A stretch of 45,294 nucleotides of DNA from the sequence record OR061069. One strand, 5' to 3'. The notes below the pieces were generated by a model. The model did no database searches, was not told the origin of the DNA, and saw only the letters and a list, made by a program, of their open reading frames with translations. Origin of the DNA: Escherichia phage M01. This document shows, one piece after another, positions 13,994 through 44,362 of this stretch. A program made the translations under genes and the position numbers. Every line of letters begins with the position of its first letter. The stretch's first letter is position 1.

Positions 13994-14478
13994 TATTTAT
14001 CACTCCCGTGTGATTTTAAGTGTGTAGAGTTACCGTTACAGTCGTATCCAGTGACAGCGTGTGTGGTTATGCCGAGGCCTCGGAAATGCTTAATTACCGC
14101 CGGAGAATCATCGAATGCACACAAGATTCTCTCCAGCCCGATAGCACGCAACACCTCTTCTTTAATTGCGATGTCTTTTCTGTTGTCGTGTTTGCCGCGC
14201 ATGATTAGCTGATAAAATTCGACGCGGTGGCGCTGCAACCACATTCTGGTTTCTTTTTCTGCATCATCACTACGGCCCGTTAAAATAATAACGGCGTAGC
14301 GACGATTGAGGGCGTTACACAGTTCGATGTTATCTCTAATTGGTTCATCATCTTTGCACGCCATGTTAAAGGGCTTCCACGCCCACGTTTCGTTGTAGTT
14401 ATCTTTCGGCAGCAGGTGCAAACGATGCGTACCATCAGCCAATGTCCCATCTAAATCGAAAATTACAATATCTTTCAT
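13993..14478 (-). CDS. HAD-family phosphatase resembling T4 Pnk 3-prime-phosphatase domain
   Basis: motifs FDLDGTLA, IILTGRSDD and C-terminal DD motif align with T4 Pnk phosphatase recalled from memory. Confidence 0.6.
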   Translation of the reverse strand: MKDIVIFDLDGTLADGTHRLHLLPKDNYNETWAWKPFNMACKDDEPIRDNIELCNALNRRYAVIILTGRSDDAEKETRMWLQRHRVEFYQLIMRGKHDNRKDIAIKEEVLRAIGLERILCAFDDSPAVIKHFRGLGITTHAVTGYDCNGNSTHLKSHGSDK

Positions 14479-15659
14479 CCCAGCATCTCCGGTGAAATAG
14501 TTAAACGTGCGACCTCGCCATATTCGGCGCTATAAGTAATTACATTTGCACTACGGCCTGACATCCATCCGCCGCGGGAGGCGTAGGCATCCTTAGCCGC
14601 CAGGGTGCGGTGTTGCTCAACAATCATGTTACGGCTTTCTACAATCTTTTGATGGTGGAGATGCCCGACATGTGCGTAACTGTACTCGCTTTCGCCGAAT
14701 GCTTTACGGAACTTAGCTATCATAATCGGCTCGACTACCGTCAAACCGTGCATTTATGCCCGTGTGTGAAAGAACAGCGTCGTTTTGCCGTGTTGCACCA
14801 TCTTGTAAACATCCGGCGACGTATCGACGAACACACGAGGCTCGTTGTCGTATAGCGTACTGAACATCTCAGCCAACCAAATCATACCTGATTCGTCATG
14901 GTTCCCTTGCACGATAAGCAGGCGAACATTTTTATGTTTAACCAGAGCCATATCGACAACACGGCGGACCATACGAATCATGTAGCGGACCAGTTTCTGA
15001 TAGCGCGTATCCGCGTCAAGAACATGACCACTCGCTGGCGTAACGGCATCCAGACTATCAAAGTGCGCGAAGTCACCAAGAAGGTTAATAACCCCTGTTC
15101 CCGCATCTGGCGCTTTCTGAAACGCAGCATCAAACCACCGAGAGAACAGGTCTTCTGCAATCTTCATATCCCAGTCATCGCCGCTCTCGTCGGCCCATGC
15201 CAGCATACCGAGATGGAAATCAGACACAGTGTAAAGGTTGAGTAGCTTGTCGTCTCGTTTGGTGCGAACGGCTTTAACAGGAGCAACGGGGGTAATCTCC
15301 GACTTCATGCCCTCGATTACGGCCTTCATTAACTCGACCTGACGTTCCGCATCGGTGTCGGTCTTAACCCATTGCAGTTTAGTGTTGCCTAACTCGTCCA
15401 CAAGTGACGATGTTCCTTTAATCTTGTAGCCATCTGGCACAAGGTGGCTAACGTCCCGCCCGTGGCCTACGCCTTTCTTAGCCAGCTTCGCTTTACGGAT
15501 GCGAATAACGCGGTCTGAGATGCCGTATTTACGGGCGATGTCGATATTCTTCATACCGGCGTTCAATTCTTCCTGTAACTGTTCGTCGGTTATTTTCTTC
15601 CGGGCCATGCTTACTTCCTCGTGTTTAGGATTTGTCCTATTTAACCACAGTGCATTCAT
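14475..15659 (-). CDS. calcineurin-like (Mre11/SbcD-like) metallophosphoesterase with N-terminal HTH, frameshift near 14753
   Basis: motifs SDFHLG, GDFAHFD, GNHD, GHLHH; HTH-like first 50 aa. Confidence 0.6.
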
Positions 15660-15673
15660 TTAAATAAAGGCGA

Positions 15674-16000
15674 CTATTTACTTTCCGCGCCTATCGCCCA
15701 CCCGGTCATCACCATTTGCAGGCGGGTGGCTGTCAGTAGGCTGTAAAACGCGTCTCCGTTTTTCTCTACCGAACGTATTACAGAGTATGTTACGGCTTGC
15801 GGAGGCAGGCCCGATTTACCAACCCCTACGGCAGCCTCACACTCGCGAACGGTAGAGTCCTTAAATGCCTTTACAATAGTAGGGTCGGCTTTATCGAGCA
15901 CACCAGAAGTCATAAGAACAGATTCACTAAATACCTGTTCGCACGGGGACCCAAAAGCAGCAAAAGACATAAACCCCAGAGCTAATACTAATTTACGCAT
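15674..16000 (-). CDS. secreted/periplasmic small protein
   Basis: N-terminal signal peptide; RBS gaggaa; TATAAT 16039-16044 on minus strand upstream. Confidence 0.45.
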   Translation of the reverse strand: MRKLVLALGFMSFAAFGSPCEQVFSESVLMTSGVLDKADPTIVKAFKDSTVRECEAAVGVGKSGLPPQAVTYSVIRSVEKNGDAFYSLLTATRLQMVMTGWAIGAESK

Positions 16001-16026
16001 AATTATTTCCTCAGTAAGTTACAGGT

Positions 16027-16051
16027 GAATAGTACCCTATTATATTGGGGT
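16027..16051. promoter_or_regulatory. conserved 25-bp element copy C; minus-strand promoter of the 13439-16000 cassette
   Basis: minus-strand TATAAT about 40 nt upstream of ATG 16000. Confidence 0.55.
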
Positions 16052-16164
16052 GCGCAAGTAGTGTGTTAGAATAAGTTTGCGCCTAGTGTCGCACACGAAA
16101 AGCGGGTGGTTCCCGTCTGGCGCGTCAACCTTAACTTGTAACCTCTTAACCAAAGGATTAAATA

Positions 16165-29292: not shown

Positions 29293-29424
29293 TCATTCCA
29301 GCACCCACAGATAAATTGCGATGAACATGCCCAATACGGCTACCATCATGCCGTATTGGCCCTCGTGACAGTAGACACCGGCAGCGAATCCCGCCAGTAC
29401 CGCGATAATCAGTTTACTTAGCAT
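29293..29424 (-). CDS. small membrane protein (43 aa)
   Basis: hydrophobic; ATG just after polymerase stop. Confidence 0.3.
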   Translation of the reverse strand: MLSKLIIAVLAGFAAGVYCHEGQYGMMVAVLGMFIAIYLWVLE

Positions 29425-31628
29425 AACGTTTTAACTCCTGCACCTTCCGCTACAAGAGGGAACCCCTCGGCCCACTCCGGCAATTCGCACATCAATTTTT
29501 CCAGTTCAGCCACCGTGTACTCAGGTAAGTCCGGAGTTTCACAGACTAATCTCATCGTGGACACGAAAGCACGATCGGGTAGCCGTCCGCCCTCAACATT
29601 CAATCAGTCGCATATAGCCAGCAAATCACGGCACAGCGCCTGAATGCAATGTTTTCGCAGAGCTTTGCCGCCGTGGGTGTACAGGGTAGTCCCCACTGGC
29701 GGGTTAACTGGTTTTCACCCTGATACTTGATTCGCACATTCGTGTTTACCCGTCCGTCTTCGTCTGTTTCCTTTGTCACACTAACGCCGATTCCCGGATA
29801 CGAGAGGATGCGACCCGACGGCAACTCCATACACAACCACCAACCAGGAACCTTCCTGCCGGATGAATCAAATTCTACAGTACGCCATATGCGGATAGCA
29901 CGCTACGCCATTCTTGCGCAGATGCGCCCCGCCGCAAAATTCACGACCAGGATTACGAACAGCAGCTAAAATTCCGTCTTTAAGGTCGCGCCAGAAAGCT
30001 ACTGTTTCAGGGTGAGACTCCCGCCACATACGCTTGATAGCGTCGCAGGTACGCCACACTTTCTTATCAAGAATATACGATGGTCGGTCATCCTTTTCAC
30101 CGGGATGTGGCGGTCGCTTTGCTTCCTGAATACGCGCCCACTCATACCCACGTGCGGTAGCAGCCCAGATGTGGTCGGGGAAAGTCCCGTCCATTGTTTT
30201 TGCCATCTCAATAAGGTCAAGACCTAAGTTTTTAGCAAACGTAACGAACGCTCCGACGCCCCCTCATAGCCGAGGCCAAGCTCGCAAGCCTTGCCTATCT
30301 GTCTGATTTCCTTGAAGTTTTTCTTAATATCATCTGGGTCCATGCCAAACATCTTACCCGCGGTTACATAGTAAATATCAACCCGGCGCGGAACGTATCA
30401 AACGCGGTTTCTCCCCAGCCAGCCACGCAAGCCCGCGACCTTCAACGTTAGAGTAGTCAGCAACAACAAACTTATGCCCTTCTTCCGGTATGATGCAGCT
30501 ACGCACGGTAGATGCCGTCAGTTTTGCCACATCGAAACGGCGATGCGCTCGGCCCTTAAGTAACGCTGAAATGCCTTTATCCAGTTCATCATCGTGATAG
30601 TACCCGCGTGCGAGATTCTGCGGCTGGAAGCCTTTACCCGCCCATCGCAGAGTACGTTTTGCCCCGCCATACTGTAAACAACCGCGACGGCGGTCGTCCG
30701 ACGAGCGGCCTAACAGCAGCGGGTTATATTTCGTTGATGCGGTGGACGCGGCCCCGAGGCGCATTTCGATAATCGTGCGGGCGTCGTCAGGTAAATCATC
30801 GTCCGCCAGCAGGTCATGAAGCGTTGACTTCTGCGCGTTGTGGATGCGGTGCGCGGGGGCGAGTTCACGCAGAATCGGCAGAAAGTCTTTACCGGTAAGC
30901 GAGCCGCCGTATTTGCGTTGGGCTTCTTCCTGTAACTGTGCCTTGTGCTTCTCCACGGCTTCAATCGCGGCTTCCGCCAGTGCAACGTCAACCTTAAACC
31001 CACGGTCATTGATTAACTGGTCAAGTTCCAGTACACGGTCCTCGAACTCGGAGTTACCCCAACGCGGCAGCTTATGAAAGACTTCACGCATCGCGGTGAT
31101 GTCGCTCACGGCGTACTTGATGAACAGCGCCCACTCGTCCGGGTGTGTTTCGGCGGTGTAACGGCGGATTTTGTAGTTCTTCGGTGTAGGTTTGGAGAAA
31201 CGCTGAATCAGCGCCTTGCCGCGTTTATCTTTCGCGTTGTCCGCGGATACGCACAAGCACTTCGCACAATGCATCGAGCGACCCCGGCAGCGCGTGACGA
31301 AACGCCCAAATCATCGTATCAATGGTGTTGCTTACCGGAATATCAAAGCCCCAGCAGTGCTTCATGATGAGCCTGTCGAACATTGAGCCGTTGTGCCACA
31401 CCATCTTAATGCGGCTGTTCGGCTTAACCAGGCGGCGTAAGTGCGCGGTGCAAATCACCCGGCATGTCGCTGCTGTCGGTGCAATCCCATACCCTGCACA
31501 GGCTCGTCGTCAAAAGCATAGGTACAGATTAGCACTTCGGTAGTTGGGTGTTCGGCATAAGCGTAGGAGCCGACTTTCTTTAAATCGGCTTCGGAGAATG
31601 TTTCAAAGTCCAGGTATAAGTAGCTCAT
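29418..31628 (-). CDS. family A DNA polymerase with 3-prime-5-prime exonuclease domain, at least five frameshifts
   Basis: Exo motifs LDFETFS and WHNGSMFD; polymerase motifs DYSNVEGR and RQIGKACELGLGYEGG spread over several frames. Confidence 0.75.
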
Positions 31629-35553: not shown

Positions 35554-35582
35554 ACTATAATAGCGAACTATTCACATGTCAA
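35554..35582 (-). promoter_or_regulatory. sigma70 promoter with IR in spacer (-35 TTGACA, 17 bp, -10 TATAGT)
   Basis: IR aatag-cgaa-ctatt. Confidence 0.55.
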
Positions 35583-35600
35583 TTGGCTTTTCTAAAATAA

Positions 35601-35627
35601 TTAATATGGTACTATTCACATATCAAC
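35601..35627 (+). promoter_or_regulatory. putative promoter/operator of HTH regulator gene (degenerate IR copy)
   Basis: ggtactattca half-site; -10-like TAATAT 35602-35607; divergent from 35554-35582. Confidence 0.4.
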
Positions 35628-35646
35628 TGACTAAGGAGTAATTGAC

Positions 35647-35862
35647 ATGCAACCATCTGAACTAGGCATTCGTGTAGAACAACGCCGTAAAGAACTCGGC
35701 ATCTCACAGCGCCGTCTGGCTGTCCTGGCCGGCGTTTCCCAGGGTGCGATTAACCAGCTCGCACTCGGGGTAACTCAGGACGTCCGCCCGGCAACGCTGT
35801 TTAAACTGGCGGAAGTGCTGCAAGTAGACGCCAAGTGGCTGGCGTTCGGTGAAGGGGCTTAA
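35647..35862 (+). CDS. XRE-family HTH transcriptional regulator (Cro/CI-like, 71 aa)
   Basis: HTH QRRLAVLAGVSQGAINQL; flanked by operator-like repeats. Confidence 0.6.
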   Translation: MQPSELGIRVEQRRKELGISQRRLAVLAGVSQGAINQLALGVTQDVRPATLFKLAEVLQVDAKWLAFGEGA

Positions 35863-35879: not shown

Positions 35880-38122
35880 CTATTCCAAATCCTCCTCTGT
35901 AACCACCAGCATTTCATTTGGTTCGTATATTGTCTTCGGTCTTAATCTGTCACCCATCTTTTCCGGTATCCGGTATGTGCCTGGCATAACTTCACCGTTA
36001 ACATCGCACCCGAGCATCAACTCCCCGTCTTTCAGCATCTTCTCGAGATGGTGGTTGGTGATGGCGTGGTCGCCCGAGTTCGCTACTATCTGCCGTTGGG
36101 TAAAACCTCGTCCGGTGTCGTTAGACTGTTGCAGGTCTTCCAGCGCGGCGAGTATGGATTCCTTACGTCCTCCATCCTTCCCACGTTTTACGGCATTCTT
36201 TACGTTTTCTTTACCTTCCTTTGTTATGCCTTCTTCCCGCTCTTTCTCCTCGTCAGTTTTGAACGGTTCGAAGCCCCACGGCATCAGCACAAGCGCCTTG
36301 TGAGGCTCAGGCAGGTCGAGGTTTACGATTGTGCCATATTCCTCGGTGCTACCCAGGAACTCAACAGCACGGTATTCTTTCGGCGGCGGGGCTTCACGGA
36401 ACTGTACGGACTCCAGAACCATACCGACAGTTTTCTGTTGAGGCCCGTGCTTAAATTTAGAGTGGTATACATTTATTTGACGGTCGGTTGCACGTTCGAT
36501 TGTCAGTTCCACGTCGACACCTGCATACAGTGCCCCGCTGCCACGGGCTTTCTTTCCCCCTTCGGCGTATGATGGACAACACCTACCGCGGCTTTAGTCG
36601 CGTCGCGTACTTCTTTCAGGATGGCGATAACTTTACCCATGCCGATTGCCGTTGATGAACTGTTCTCGTCAAACTTATCAATCGTCAGGGCCAGCGTCTG
36701 GTTGAGGGTGTCGAACGCGACCATACCGATTGGCTCGTCGCCAGCAGTTTCGCGCATTAACTTAATCAGGTTTTTCAGTTTGCGCGAGACTTCGCCCATA
36801 TCAATGACATGTATGTAATCTTTACCTTCCTCGCCGTATTTAGCCGCGAGCGCGTCAATACGTGTGCGTGTAGCAGCGCCACCCTCACCGTCGATATAGA
36901 AGTGATGACAACGCTGGGTATCAGCCCCCGCAAACCGGTATCCGGCGGCGCTGAGATACATCATCCCCAGAGTATAAAACGATTTGTACGTGCCAGATTC
37001 CCCGACAATATCCCATATGCAATCCGACGGCATGTACCCTTCAACGACGAAATCAGCCTTTACCGGTTCTGGTAACTCGTCCTCCTCTGAGTCCTCGTCG
37101 TCTTCCAGGTCGTCGAGGCTGCATGAAACGGATTCACGCACACCCCAGCCGATTGCCTCAGCGACTTCACTGAACGGTAGCCCGGTCGCATCACACGCAT
37201 ACTTCCACACCTCTTTCGGTGACATGCCTTCGGTCGCCGTAATGTCGGTGTCGTGAATCATTGTTACGTTAGGCGCTTCGTACCCTTCACGCGGGAAACA
37301 CAGCAGGAAGTCGTCCGGGCGCGGCGTCGGGTCGCTGTAGTTTTCTGCGTGTTCTGGCGTAGCTGGCATCTTTAGGCCACGCGGCGTCATGATGCCACCG
37401 TACTCGAACGCCAGTGCCTCAAACGCATCTGTAAACGCGGTGCGCAGTTCTTCCGGTATCTGGTAGTCAGATGCGCTGCTGATGTCAACGGCTGGGACGC
37501 CTTCCAGTAACTCATCAGGGTCAATCAGGTCGTTGCGGCGCGACCAGATAACAGTAGAGCCAACTGGCGGCAGGTACATCGGCTGCGACAGAGTGAACCC
37601 GCTGCGGTCCGCGCCCATGCCTTTGAAGAAGTGCTCCAGTAATCCATGGCGAACACGGATGATGTCGCCACCTTCAACCGGGCGGGCCAGCGGCATGACG
37701 ACGCGAAAGCGCGGCGACTCGTCGGTATGTGATGCCGTGGTGTAGAGACACATCGCCTGGCGGCTGCGCTTAACCAGGCGCACCGCTTCCTGATACTCTT
37801 CCGGTGTTGCGCTGTCGAAGTCCAGGTACGCCAGCGAAGATTTGCTTACAGACGCATCACAGCGATAGAAGAAGCCTTTACGCGCTTGCTTAAAGTCGCC
37901 TGTTTCCGGGTCTTTTACGGTGCTGTGTGTGGAGTCGCACGCGGCGGTGATATAACCGGGTGCGGTCTTCGGGTTAATTCCGTCACGGACAGCATCAAGC
38001 GGCTGGATTAAATCTTTCAGGTCGCCCAGCGTTGCCGTGTGTGTGGTTCTGACGTTTATATCCTTTTTCTCCGCCCGCGCGTTGCGACGAGACCACGAGT
38101 AGGATAAAATTACATCGGACAT
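35880..38122 (-). CDS. primase-polymerase / RecA-fold helicase fusion, frameshift near 36510
   Basis: Walker A GESGTYKS, Walker B MVAFDTL, HHTPK motif; N-terminal AEP-like AYLDFD. Confidence 0.7.
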
Positions 38123-38180: not shown

Positions 38181-38413
38181 TTATTCCAGGTCTTCTAAAG
38201 TAGCGGTCATTCCGCGAACTTCGGCAACAGCACTATATTTCCCGCCAACATTTTTCACGACACCAGATTTAACCAGTACCTTCAACGACCCTTCAATAAT
38301 GGCGGAACTATAGTACCTAAAATAACTACGGCGCAAGTCCATAACGCTGCACGACCCTTTTTACAGGTTAATGAAACGACTGCCGTAAATACGCGGGACT
38401 GGAACTCGGTCAT
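38181..38413 (-). CDS. hypothetical protein, probable frameshift; boundaries uncertain
   Basis: good RBS ggagaa; ATGA overlap with upstream HTH gene. Confidence 0.2.
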
Positions 38414-38581
38414 TTTACATTCTCCTTAATCCACGCTTCCACTTTCTCCGGGTCGAAAGTACCCGGCTGCCGGCGGCCCATAATACGGATACAACAATCC
38501 GGGAACTTCCCACTCTTTAACCAGTTATTCAGCGTGCGGCGAGTAACCCCGATACGCTCAGCTACTTCATTCTGTGTCATT
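38410..38581 (-). CDS. HTH DNA-binding protein (excisionase/MerR-like fold)
   Basis: motif TQNEVAERIGVTRRTLNNW. Confidence 0.5.
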
Positions 38582-38608
38582 CTCAAACCCCCATTATCAG
38601 TTAACGAA

Positions 38609-38640
38609 ACCAAGTATACATTGCGAATAATGGGAAATCA
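38609..38640 (-). promoter_or_regulatory. sigma70-like promoter (-35 TTGATT, 17 bp, -10 TATACT) for HTH/primase-helicase operon
   Basis: read on minus strand. Confidence 0.4.
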
Positions 38641-38657
38641 AACATAATCGCACCTAT

Positions 38658-38955
38658 TGACATTATGAAAATCTTCGTTTAAGGTGCTTCTGTATCTTAG
38701 TTACTTTGATTCCTGTTCACCTTGTAAGAATGTTTAACCGAAAACGTGCGTCAACGCAAAGTGTTAAGCGACAGGCTTACTGAACATTCGAGAATTATCG
38801 TAACTTTCCTTCCTAAGTATCTCCGGTTGCCCTGGGCAAGCTCTATTCTCATCGGCAGCATATCTCTTAAGTATCTGATTTTCTTAAAGTGCCGTAGATT
38901 CGCAACCGTAAAAATGTAACGATTATTGGGCAGGCTTAGGGCCTGCCCTTTAGTT
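38658..38955 (+). other. noncoding region: plus-strand promoter-like TTGACA 38658-38663, direct repeats TAAGTATCT (38814-38822, 38868-38876), terminator 38928-38955
   Basis: no ORF of 60 aa or more; adjacent to replication genes. Confidence 0.3.
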
Positions 38956-39042
38956 ACCAAGTAATAAGAATAAAGGCACAACCCTACCTGAAGAATCACA
39001 ACGGCAACGTAACCATTTTCAATGAATCTCTTGCACACCCCA

Positions 39043-39068
39043 ACATAATAGGATACTATTCACTTATC
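39043..39068 (+). promoter_or_regulatory. promoter with IR copy (-10 CATAAT, aatag-gata-ctatt)
   Basis: same architecture as copies A-C; upstream of ATG 39094. Confidence 0.45.
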
Positions 39069-39093
39069 GAAACGAGACATAAGGAATTCAGAA

Positions 39094-39312
39094 ATGAACA
39101 AAGCGACTGCAAGCGTGGTTTCCGCAATCAGAGAAGTTTACGGCATCGATATTTCAGAGCGCGTAATTATCGGGAACAAACGCAACTTCTTTACGTTCGA
39201 CACCGACGGAATGGATGAAAATGATTTTATTAACGTACAACGTTTCGCCATCGGTAAAGGGCTCCGTAACGAGCCTGCAGGTTACAAGAAATTCGCTATC
39301 TACTTTAAATAA
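39094..39312 (+). CDS. hypothetical protein (72 aa)
   Basis: RBS aaggaa; ORF track. Confidence 0.4.
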   Translation: MNKATASVVSAIREVYGIDISERVIIGNKRNFFTFDTDGMDENDFINVQRFAIGKGLRNEPAGYKKFAIYFK

Positions 39313-44226: not shown

Positions 44227-44258
44227 AAACCCGGACCGCGAATCCGGGTTTTATTTTA
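44227..44258. terminator. bidirectional intrinsic terminator
   Basis: aaaa-cccgga-ccgcgaa-tccggg-tttt. Confidence 0.55.
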
Positions 44259-44330
44259 CCAATTGACACCTAAGACTAATCCGACGATACTTAAATCACC
44301 TCCTGTTCCATCCCTCTGCTATCCAGTTTA

Positions 44331-44362
44331 TCCCGGCCCTGACCCAGCCGGGATTTTTTTAT
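44331..44362 (+). terminator. intrinsic terminator
   Basis: cccggc-cctgaccca-gccggg then TTTTTTT. Confidence 0.55.

Follow-up and report, generated by a model that had tools for sequence, protein, structure and literature searches.

What is carried by the gap between the two divergent early operons of a Kagunavirus phage? We addressed this question in the 45,294-nucleotide sequence of Escherichia phage M01 (record OR061069), the whole of which is called the window here and which is a complete genome of this group of small virulent siphoviruses (Guernseyvirinae) infecting E. coli. Comparison with related phages suggests that the gap holds a unit with an unusually clear comparative signature, either a transcribed replication origin like that of phage c2 or a phage noncoding RNA.

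This unannotated unit is of practical importance. Kagunavirus and Jerseyvirus phages are common candidates for therapy and biocontrol, and phage engineers are taking them up as small chassis. Annotators sometimes lay a spurious open reading frame (ORF) over the unit, genome minimizers may delete it, and those who build replicons or reboot genomes need to know whether it must stay. Our search of the literature found neither an origin nor a noncoding RNA described for these phages. The transcriptome paper on the relative K1B4 reports genes only and is silent on the gap (PMC12645636), as is the BASEL paper; the CiPGr genome-reduction paper was set aside because it concerns Skatevirus, another group.

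A noncoding gap between divergent early operons

The window is colinear with GenBank PQ474795.1 (Escherichia phage vB_Eco_AMO_3701M), gap-free and of equal length, with ∼4.7% substitutions clustered in blocks. The noncoding gap sits between the divergent early operons, immediately upstream of the HTH, p77 and helicase-primase genes (Table 1). To its left, on the minus strand, lie the gene for the HTH_17 regulator, that for a 77-aa protein (p77) for which no Pfam or PDB sequence relative was found, and that for the helicase-primase, the last two being split by frameshifts in the window assembly. To its right, on the plus strand, a series of small early genes begins at 39094. In K1B4, the HTH gene is classed as early (PMC12645636). 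The phage encodes a Pol A-type polymerase in addition to the helicase-primase, and the genes beside the gap form a mosaic hot-spot of accessory genes. In UTEC10, a cleanly annotated relative, no other noncoding stretch is as large as the equivalent gap (497 bp). Two GenBank records, templet and celemicas, start or stop within the gap, a possible clue to a genome end for which the record offered nothing in support.

A blastn search of 50,697 phage records returned matches to the gap in 447, all from Kagunavirus, Jerseyvirus or close kin. Sequences like that of the window, here called type A, are represented by 25 sequences from two genera. In other Kagunaviruses the same slot is occupied by two unrelated sequences, namely type B, which is K1G-like, and type C, a third unrelated allele.

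PQ474795.1 carries a 95-aa CDS annotation across the gap. This CDS is unannotated in UTEC10 and K1ind1, and its frame and ends vary among relatives. No conserved ORF was found in 25 homologous regions, two of which have no ORF of at least 25 aa, and the annotation is therefore judged to be spurious; the preliminary description of this DNA had likewise seen no convincing ORF. Insertions and deletions among type-A relatives (1, 4, 8 and 12 nt) are scattered between conserved elements and are not all multiples of three.

Table 1. Features in and around the gap; promoters and RNA elements are predictions
Feature	Position	Strand	Remarks
HTH_17 (excisionase/AlpA-like) regulator gene, 56 aa	38410..38580	-	Pfam HTH_17, E = 2e-7
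Noncoding gap, 513 bp	38581-39093		Back-to-back promoters, 12-nt direct repeat, GC hairpin plus T run
P_L, leftward promoter, TTGATT-17-TATACT	38613..38641	-	Consensus scan; serves HTH_17 gene and replication operon
P_R1, rightward promoter, TTGACA-17-TAAGGT	38657..38685	+	TTGACA 38657-38662, TAAGGT 38680-38685
Predicted noncoding transcript, ∼260 nt	38692..38952	+	Both ends inferred
Hairpin 1, 105 nt	38699..38805	+	Five stacked helices, variable tip
Hairpin 1, P1	38699-38704/38800-38805		
Hairpin 1, P2	38708-38712/38792-38796		
Hairpin 1, P3	38714-38719/38781-38786		
Hairpin 1, P4	38724-38728/38776-38780		
Hairpin 1, P5	38731-38737/38764-38770		
Annotated CDS, 95 aa, GTG start	38751..39038	-	GenBank PQ474795.1; judged spurious
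Direct repeat copy 1 (TCCTAAGTATCT)	38811..38822	+	C/U-rich stretch after hairpin 1, unpaired in predicted fold
Direct repeat TAAGTATCT, 9-mer	38814-38822 and 38868-38876		54 bp apart
Extended direct repeat TCYTAAGTATCT, 12-mer	38811-38822 and 38865-38876		Contains TAAGTATCT
Second smaller stem, UUGCC...GGCAG	38826..38857	+	RNAalifold; encloses alternative small hairpin 38827-38839
3′-domain core	38859..38897	+	Alignment of types A, B and C; holds repeat copy 2 (38865-38876)
3′ GC-rich stem-loop plus TTTAGTT	38928..38955	+	Stem 38928-38948, 9 pairs, 7 G-C
Conserved box CACAACGGCAACGTAAC	38997..39013	+	Just upstream of P_R2
P_R2, second rightward promoter, TTGCAC-17-TACTAT	39031..39059	+	Read by eye; not called by scan

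Promoters, repeats and a 3′ stem-loop

The preliminary description had proposed a minus-strand promoter, a plus-strand TTGACA element, two repeat copies spaced 54 bp apart and a strong hairpin terminator. All are present, with the TTGACA element one base to the left of the 38658-38663 given there and the repeat extending to a 12-mer. Within P_L, AAGTATAC and ATAATGGGAAATCAA are invariant among the 25 type-A relatives. In P_R1, TTGACA and T-A-A-G-n-T are invariant in the same number of sequences, and in Salmonella phage AG11 this site bears an RpoD-type promoter annotation. P_R1 was absent from the calls of the consensus scan because TAAGGT fits at only three of six positions; the scan picked TTGCGA-16-CATAAT (38621-38648) instead, and the exact transcription start, predicted near 38692, is uncertain for this reason.

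P_R2 precedes the first small early gene. It is a 30-nt element that recurs on the minus strand at 16029-16058 (chance matches expected: 0) and belongs to a family of sites with TACTATTCAC in common. The distance from the −10 element of P_R1 to the −35 element of P_R2, both promoters being predicted, is 346 bp. The box CACAACGGCAACGTAAC occurs in Kagunavirus types A, B and C and in many Jerseyviruses, and its exact copy is unique in the window.

Judged from the window sequence alone, these elements do not stand out. Promoter-like counts are within noise (7 found versus 3.5 expected), and the 9-mer pair is not remarkable: allowing up to one mismatch, the genome has 11 matches where 6.9 are expected, a count reached by 6 of 100 shuffles, and a rough estimate gives ∼0.2 chance 9-mer pairs in 350 bp. 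The elements exceed chance because relatives conserve them. TTGACA, TAAGnT, both repeats (with an occasional one-base change) and the 3′ hairpin are kept in all 25 type-A relatives from two genera. Repeat copy 1 in particular, apart from a single-base change here and there, is kept in type A; types B and C do not have it. Neither repeat copy qualifies as a promoter on either strand, as no −35 element lies at a workable spacing.

The 3′ stem-loop of the window is likely an intrinsic terminator. Its stem occurs among relatives in variants that keep pairing, namely GGGCAGGC/GCCTGCCC, GGGCAGGT/ACCTGCCC, GGGTGGGC/GCCCACCC, CTTGCC/GGCAAG and GGTGCC/GGCACC, and no U tract follows the last three. Since three of the five stem versions lack a U tract, the element is better regarded as a conserved structural end that probably acts as a true terminator only in some alleles, including that of the window.

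A covarying hairpin in a predicted RNA

A transcript running from P_R1 to the 3′ stem-loop is predicted to fold at −69.7 kcal/mol in the window copy (z −2.6), and the whole RNA reaches z −2.8 to −6.9 in natural relatives. The 5′ part forms hairpin 1, whose five-helix fold is identical in every type-A allele. A covariance model built from 13 Kagunavirus copies recovers the Jerseyvirus copies at 25-39 bits and, with both strands of the window searched, finds no further copy there.

In an alignment based on this model, with 26 distinct sequences, 98.4% of cells are paired versus 83.4% in shuffles (none of 500 reaches the natural value), and pairing falls to 30-48% when the partners are slid by one to three columns. 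Both sides change and yet stay paired in 13 of the 29 pairs; these two-sided changes include all seven pairs of P5, the closing pair of P4 (G-C, A-U and U-A) and two pairs of P2, and P3 has a compensated base-pair insertion. Because the alignment follows the model and its sequences share ancestry, fewer independent events underlie these figures than the cell counts suggest. Against shuffles, hairpin 1 scores z −4.5 to −8.1 in natural variants. The window's version is weaker (−27.8 kcal/mol), and its differences from PQ474795.1 leave P5 paired by way of two G-U wobbles. Bulges and internal loops are conserved, and the tip of the hairpin is its most variable part.

Additional structure is predicted downstream. 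The pairs of the second smaller stem vary on one side only (U-G to C-G, A-U to G-U), which makes this stem a weakly supported candidate, and its inner hairpin was also listed by the terminator scan. In the 3′-domain core, the motif AUAUCY..AAGUnnCUGAU..UGCCGWRR is largely common to all alleles, with type C lacking the AAGU element.

Several observations bear on which strand is used. Helices of hairpin 1 contain 38 G-U cells versus 2 A-C cells when read on the plus strand, a ratio that favors plus-strand RNA, with only about three independent G-U events behind it. Folding energies show no consistent strand bias, as Kagunavirus copies favor the plus strand and Jerseyvirus copies slightly favor the minus strand. 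With folding energy uninformative and G-U events few, the assigned direction of the RNA depends mainly on the orientation of promoter and terminator.

On these grounds, the view that the gap is a noncoding RNA unit with an evolutionarily maintained hairpin is well supported by comparative evidence. The preliminary suggestion of a noncoding RNA of about 280 nt is borne out to the extent that a promoter, a covarying hairpin, a 3′ stem-loop and the lack of a conserved ORF all point to one, although its predicted length is closer to 260 nt.

Unrelated alleles occupy the same slot

In the 44 Guernseyvirinae loci gathered from IMG/VR, the slot between the early operons is filled in every case, despite sequence replacement. 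The 5′ domains of types A, B and C cannot be aligned, the 3′ domain is partly homologous, and P_R2 and the rightward flank are common to all three. In place of P_R1, type C has TTGAAA-18-TATAAT, which matches the consensus at 11 of 12 positions. Type B appears by eye to have a rightward promoter with an extended −10 element, TTGACT-17-TGcTAAGCT, and its sequence includes a leftward equivalent of P_L, TTGCTT-17-TATACT. Both alleles then continue with ∼215-240 nt that lack an ORF, fold more stably than shuffled versions (z −2.5 to −3.0) and end in a GC hairpin, followed by the box CACAACGGCAACGTAAC and P_R2.

The HTH_17 gene is co-inherited with the gap allele. The segment predicted to read DNA is GVTRRTLNNW in phages with type A and GVTRQTINNW in those with type B or C; in both genera, the type-A segment and p77 are seen only with type-A sequence. 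The helicase-primase follows another pattern, being 95% identical between some type-B and type-A phages, and covariation of the RNA allele with this protein was rejected for this reason.

Co-inheritance of the HTH_17 segment and p77 with type A would also be expected if the gap were a control region that acts as DNA. The TCYTAAGTATCT repeats would then be in-phase sites for HTH_17 or p77 and would function as operators or make up a minimal origin of the iteron type; the inverted repeat would form a cruciform or bind a protein, and transcription would be incidental. Repeat spacings near whole helical turns (54 bp here; 53 and 104 bp between the three copies of Jerseyviruses, which are in helical phase) and the inconsistent strand bias of folding energies are compatible with this arrangement. 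However, there are only two or three copies, of which copy 1 is absent from types B and C, and simple adjacency would explain why the HTH gene travels with the gap. Moreover, the helices tolerate plus-strand G-U and almost never A-C, it is the bulges and internal loops that are conserved and the hairpin tip that varies, and every allele keeps a promoter in front. We consequently consider a DNA-level role to be quite improbable.

A possible transcribed origin of replication

The reading that we place first, and hold only tentatively, is that the unit is the cis-acting transcribed core of the phage replication origin. Host polymerase with sigma-70 would start at P_R1 and produce an RNA of ∼260 nt from near 38692. 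The first 105 nt would fold into the long maintained hairpin, a C/U-rich unpaired stretch carrying both repeat copies would follow, and the GC stem-loop would end or stabilize the RNA just ahead of P_R2. The transcript might then open the duplex or prime DNA synthesis beside the helicase-primase operon. The production of this RNA, the location of its ends and the origin function as a whole are inferred.

Several features speak for this possibility, including the position of the gap, the fact that the slot is never empty, the lack of origin-like repeats elsewhere and the geometry shared with c2 (see below). The genome-wide minimum of cumulative GC skew near 39000 also agrees, but is confounded by its coincidence with the switch in transcription direction. 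The same helicase-primase occurs with types A and B, and any recognition would thus have to be independent of sequence. The accessory-gene hot-spot around the gap counts against an origin in that it fits an accessory RNA equally well.

An origin of the iteron form, which the preliminary description had envisaged, is not borne out. The repeat is present in two copies here and three in Jerseyviruses, copy 1 is lost in types B and C, and no tandem, clustered or other origin-like repeat array was found genome-wide. DnaA boxes are not enriched (39 genome matches versus 33.9 expected), and the gap contains a single box with one mismatch and no cluster, by which a DnaA-dependent origin was rejected as well. 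The word TGTTCACC, which we take to be the iteron of P4, occurs once at 38714-38721 and becomes TGTTTCACC in Jerseyviruses, and this lack of conservation led us to discard a P4-type iteron. If there is an origin here, it may be transcript-dependent like that of c2.

A 2020 study of the lactococcal prolate phages summarizes the published features of their origins: a noncoding origin stretch in c2 flanked by the promoters PE1 and PE2, an untranslated PE1 transcript implicated in replication initiation, and three unrelated origin types that differ between the promoters and yield non-functional chimeras (PMC7150918). In the c2 record, the origin lies in a 611-bp intergenic region between early and late genes, with ∼333 bp from the −10 element of EP1 to the −35 element of EP2. 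The resemblance of our gap to the Ceduovirus origins of c2, bIL67 and 923 is considerable: a noncoding gap (611 bp in c2, 513 bp here) separates divergent gene clusters and is bounded by the first two tandem early promoters at nearly the same distance (∼333 bp in c2 versus ∼346 bp between the predicted promoters here), the transcript template has neither an ORF nor a ribosome-binding site, and mutually unrelated types lie between the promoters, with the downstream flank (P_R2 and the rightward genes) conserved here.

There are also differences. The region proximal to P_L and P_R1 also varies between our alleles. No sequence similarity exists and no Lactococcus phage is among the 447 matching records, which makes this a case of analogy and not of membership. 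The c2 transcript does not fold unusually (z 0.16) and no terminator was called in it, whereas the gap RNA combines a covarying hairpin of 105 nt with a stem-loop at its 3′ end; this strong structure argues against the origin reading and is more like that of a stand-alone RNA. Also counting against it, c2 origins replicate plasmids with host proteins only, while Kagunavirus phages encode their own helicase-primase and DNA polymerase. If the parallel proves true, origins that depend on a transcript and whose templates can be swapped would occur in enterobacterial phages as well as in a Gram-positive phage group.

Promoter-dependent origins also include the primary origin of T7, ColE1 RNA II and the R-loop origins oriF and oriG of T4. 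As in these systems, a promoter-driven untranslated transcript near replication genes could prime synthesis or open the duplex here, and iterons and initiator boxes would be unnecessary. Like T7, the phage encodes a helicase-primase and a Pol A-type polymerase. In contrast to them, the promoter here is of the host sigma-70 type and not the phage-polymerase type, the RNA is not G-rich and has no obvious R-loop-favoring run in type A, a stem-loop plus T run follows it, and the sequence points to no RNase H or primer-transition site.

A stand-alone RNA as the main alternative

The arrangement of promoter, structured body and 3′ stem-loop is also the classic layout of a small-RNA gene. Ranking close behind the transcribed origin, and in our estimation somewhat unlikely, is a stand-alone early RNA that acts in trans as a regulator, a protein sponge or a decoy against the host or a competing phage, with no role in replication. 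Hairpin 1 and the 3′ stem-loop would stabilize such an RNA, and C/U-rich stretches with AUAUCY..AAGU..CUGAU would be its working surface. That most of one motif is common to otherwise unrelated alleles fits this proposal, and the existence of several unrelated alleles together with swappable neighbor genes suggests diversifying selection of the accessory type. On the other hand, none of the 44 loci has an empty slot, an unusual pattern for an accessory element, and ∼260 nt is long for a base-pairing small RNA.

A target search covering all 103 start regions of the genome yielded a sole outlier, in which nucleotides 38804-38828 pair with nucleotides 14471-14494, at the start codon of the polynucleotide kinase gene and its ribosome-binding site, at −31 kcal/mol, a value matched by 2 of 300 shuffles. 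However, comparison of 16 genomes with different RNA alleles revealed that phages with type-B or type-C RNA, which is unable to pair with the kinase site, have this site in the same or almost the same form, and a search with the kinase gene returned no Jerseyvirus contig. These two results led us to reject the pairing as a conserved function. A base-pairing small RNA of the Hfq type was discarded because its best target does not covary with the allele and because the U tail, missing altogether in several alleles, is here a short UUU-AG-UU.

Mimicry of host or plasmid sequences was likewise rejected. No match to the region was found in the E. coli chromosome, and plasmids gave only a 27-nt chance match in traN. 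At the gathering threshold, the whole window has no match in Rfam 15. With a permissive cutoff (E ≤ 10), the region 38300-39300 returned only sbrA (19.3 bits; threshold 45) and Hrs12 (17.2 bits; threshold 70), which we dismiss as terminator-driven chance matches below threshold. A metagenome scan for transcript-sized contigs gave 12 matches, nearly all of them multi-kb genomic contigs.

Among small or terminated leader RNAs of phages, well-known examples are lambda oop, the 6S RNA from lambda PR′ and the CI RNA of P4. The gap RNA would share with them a short, constitutively promoted and terminated noncoding transcript near replication or regulatory genes, all of which is predicted here. It differs from them in being antisense to no gene and much longer than oop or CI RNA, and in coming from a virulent phage without a repressor or immunity context.

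A possible structured leader or allele-specific determinant

P_R1 and P_R2 are in tandem and aimed at the same operon, which raises the possibility that the gap RNA serves these rightward early genes as a long structured leader or attenuator. The hairpin at 38928 would halt transcripts from P_R1 or let them pass into the genes from 39094 onward, and hairpin 1 would be an RNase III processing site or a cis-acting antitermination element. Suitable points of comparison are the 6S RNA of lambda PR′ with tR′, the early RNase III sites of T7 and put of HK022. Several alleles have no U tract after the 3′ hairpin and are likely to permit read-through, RNase III typically cuts hairpins that are long and imperfect, and a −10-like TATCTT lies at about +2 to +7 of the predicted transcript. 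Nevertheless, P_R2, a member of a repeated promoter family, is located only ∼35 nt ahead of the first gene and so should suffice for expression of the operon. No Q-like or N-like gene was recognized in a scan of six nearby proteins, and the complete replacement of sequence between alleles argues against a specific antiterminator site. A leader function is therefore improbable in our view.

A more speculative proposal, to which we give little credence, is that the Guernseyvirinae have a mandatory "RNA slot" between their two early operons that is filled by interchangeable unrelated structured RNAs, each with a matching HTH_17 allele, and that constitutes a new determinant of phage specificity. 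Such an RNA would differ both from a passive origin and from an ordinary small RNA; it could, for example, be an allele-specific primer or licensing RNA that chooses between co-infecting genomes, or a decoy against an RNA-sensing host defense. The gap alleles themselves are ready material for swap and compensatory-mutation experiments.

Variable gene content beside the noncoding unit

In loci L004-L045, the position that follows the HTH_17 gene and precedes the helicase-primase gene is a swappable slot. Where the noncoding gap carries the type A allele, as in the window, this slot encodes the 77-aa protein p77. With the unrelated alleles B and C it encodes one of two other proteins, of 96 aa (MKGVIFH...) or of 70-77 aa (MIGRMGC...). 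None of these three slot proteins has a match in Pfam. The exchange extends in some type-B phages to the helicase-primase itself, with replacement of the N-terminal 330 aa or of the entire protein.

The noncoding unit of one type-B variant (locus L023) has a (CTCA)7 microsatellite in its 3′ domain. The 14-mer TCAGATACTTAAGA, given here on the locus strand, occurs three times in Jerseyviruses (L022, 1706-1876), with spacings of 53 and 104 bp that are near 5 and 10 helical turns, and the third copy resides within the 5′ arm of hairpin 1, the five-helix fold at the 5′ end of the predicted noncoding RNA.

Features in the window and in one related locus
Feature	Position	Description
Candidate small RNA	44263-44362	TTGACA-17-GATACT promoter, ~60 nt C/U-rich without ORF, hairpin
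(CTCA)7 microsatellite	L023, ~330-357 of 530-nt upstream stretch	window orientation
Promoter-like site family	16025-16058 (-), 35566 (+), 35610 (+), 39030-39063 (+), 41182 (+)	share TACTATTCAC
Direct repeats, 2 x 31 nt	35558-35588 and 35602-35632	44 bp apart, 81% identical
Split genes	35880-38122, 38181-38413, 29418-31628 and others	essential genes in fragments

Complementarity to the polynucleotide kinase gene

Over 21 bp (-31 kcal/mol), the unpaired stretch 3′ of hairpin 1 (38804-38828) is complementary to the polynucleotide kinase gene (14471-14494, minus strand), at a segment that covers this gene's ribosome-binding site and start codon. The target site is unchanged or almost so in phages whose RNA alleles are unable to pair with it, and therefore the match is probably due to chance or specific to one lineage.

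Promoter-like sites and possible operators

Among the promoter-like sites that share TACTATTCAC, the 30-mer CTTGCRCACCCCAAYATAATAGGRTACTAT occurs at full length twice, once before the operon that begins at 39094 and once before the one at 16000. This pairing points to a common regulator. The two 31-nt direct repeats are directly upstream of a Cro-like HTH_3 gene (35647-35862, plus strand), the lone plus-strand gene within a leftward operon, and probably represent tandem promoters or operators.

Assembly quality and comparison with PQ474795.1

Many essential genes of the window are in pieces, including those for helicase-primase (two fragments), p77 (two) and DNA polymerase I (six), as well as terminase and capsid genes. 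Their counterparts in the relatives UTEC10 and K1ind1 are intact, and therefore the assembly appears to contain many indel errors. Across the whole window, Escherichia phage vB_Eco_AMO_3701M (PQ474795.1) has equal length, identical ORF coordinates and zero indels, with substitutions (~4.7%) clustered in blocks. There are 313 between 35500 and 42100 and none between 38900 and 41200; hairpin 1 has 11 differences. The window may be either an altered copy or a mosaic relative of natural origin.

A second candidate small RNA

Besides the unit in the 38581-39093 gap, a further candidate small RNA is found at the position listed in the table. Its hairpin (CCCGGC...GCCGGG) is followed by seven T's, and another terminator-like hairpin (~44231-44258) precedes the candidate.
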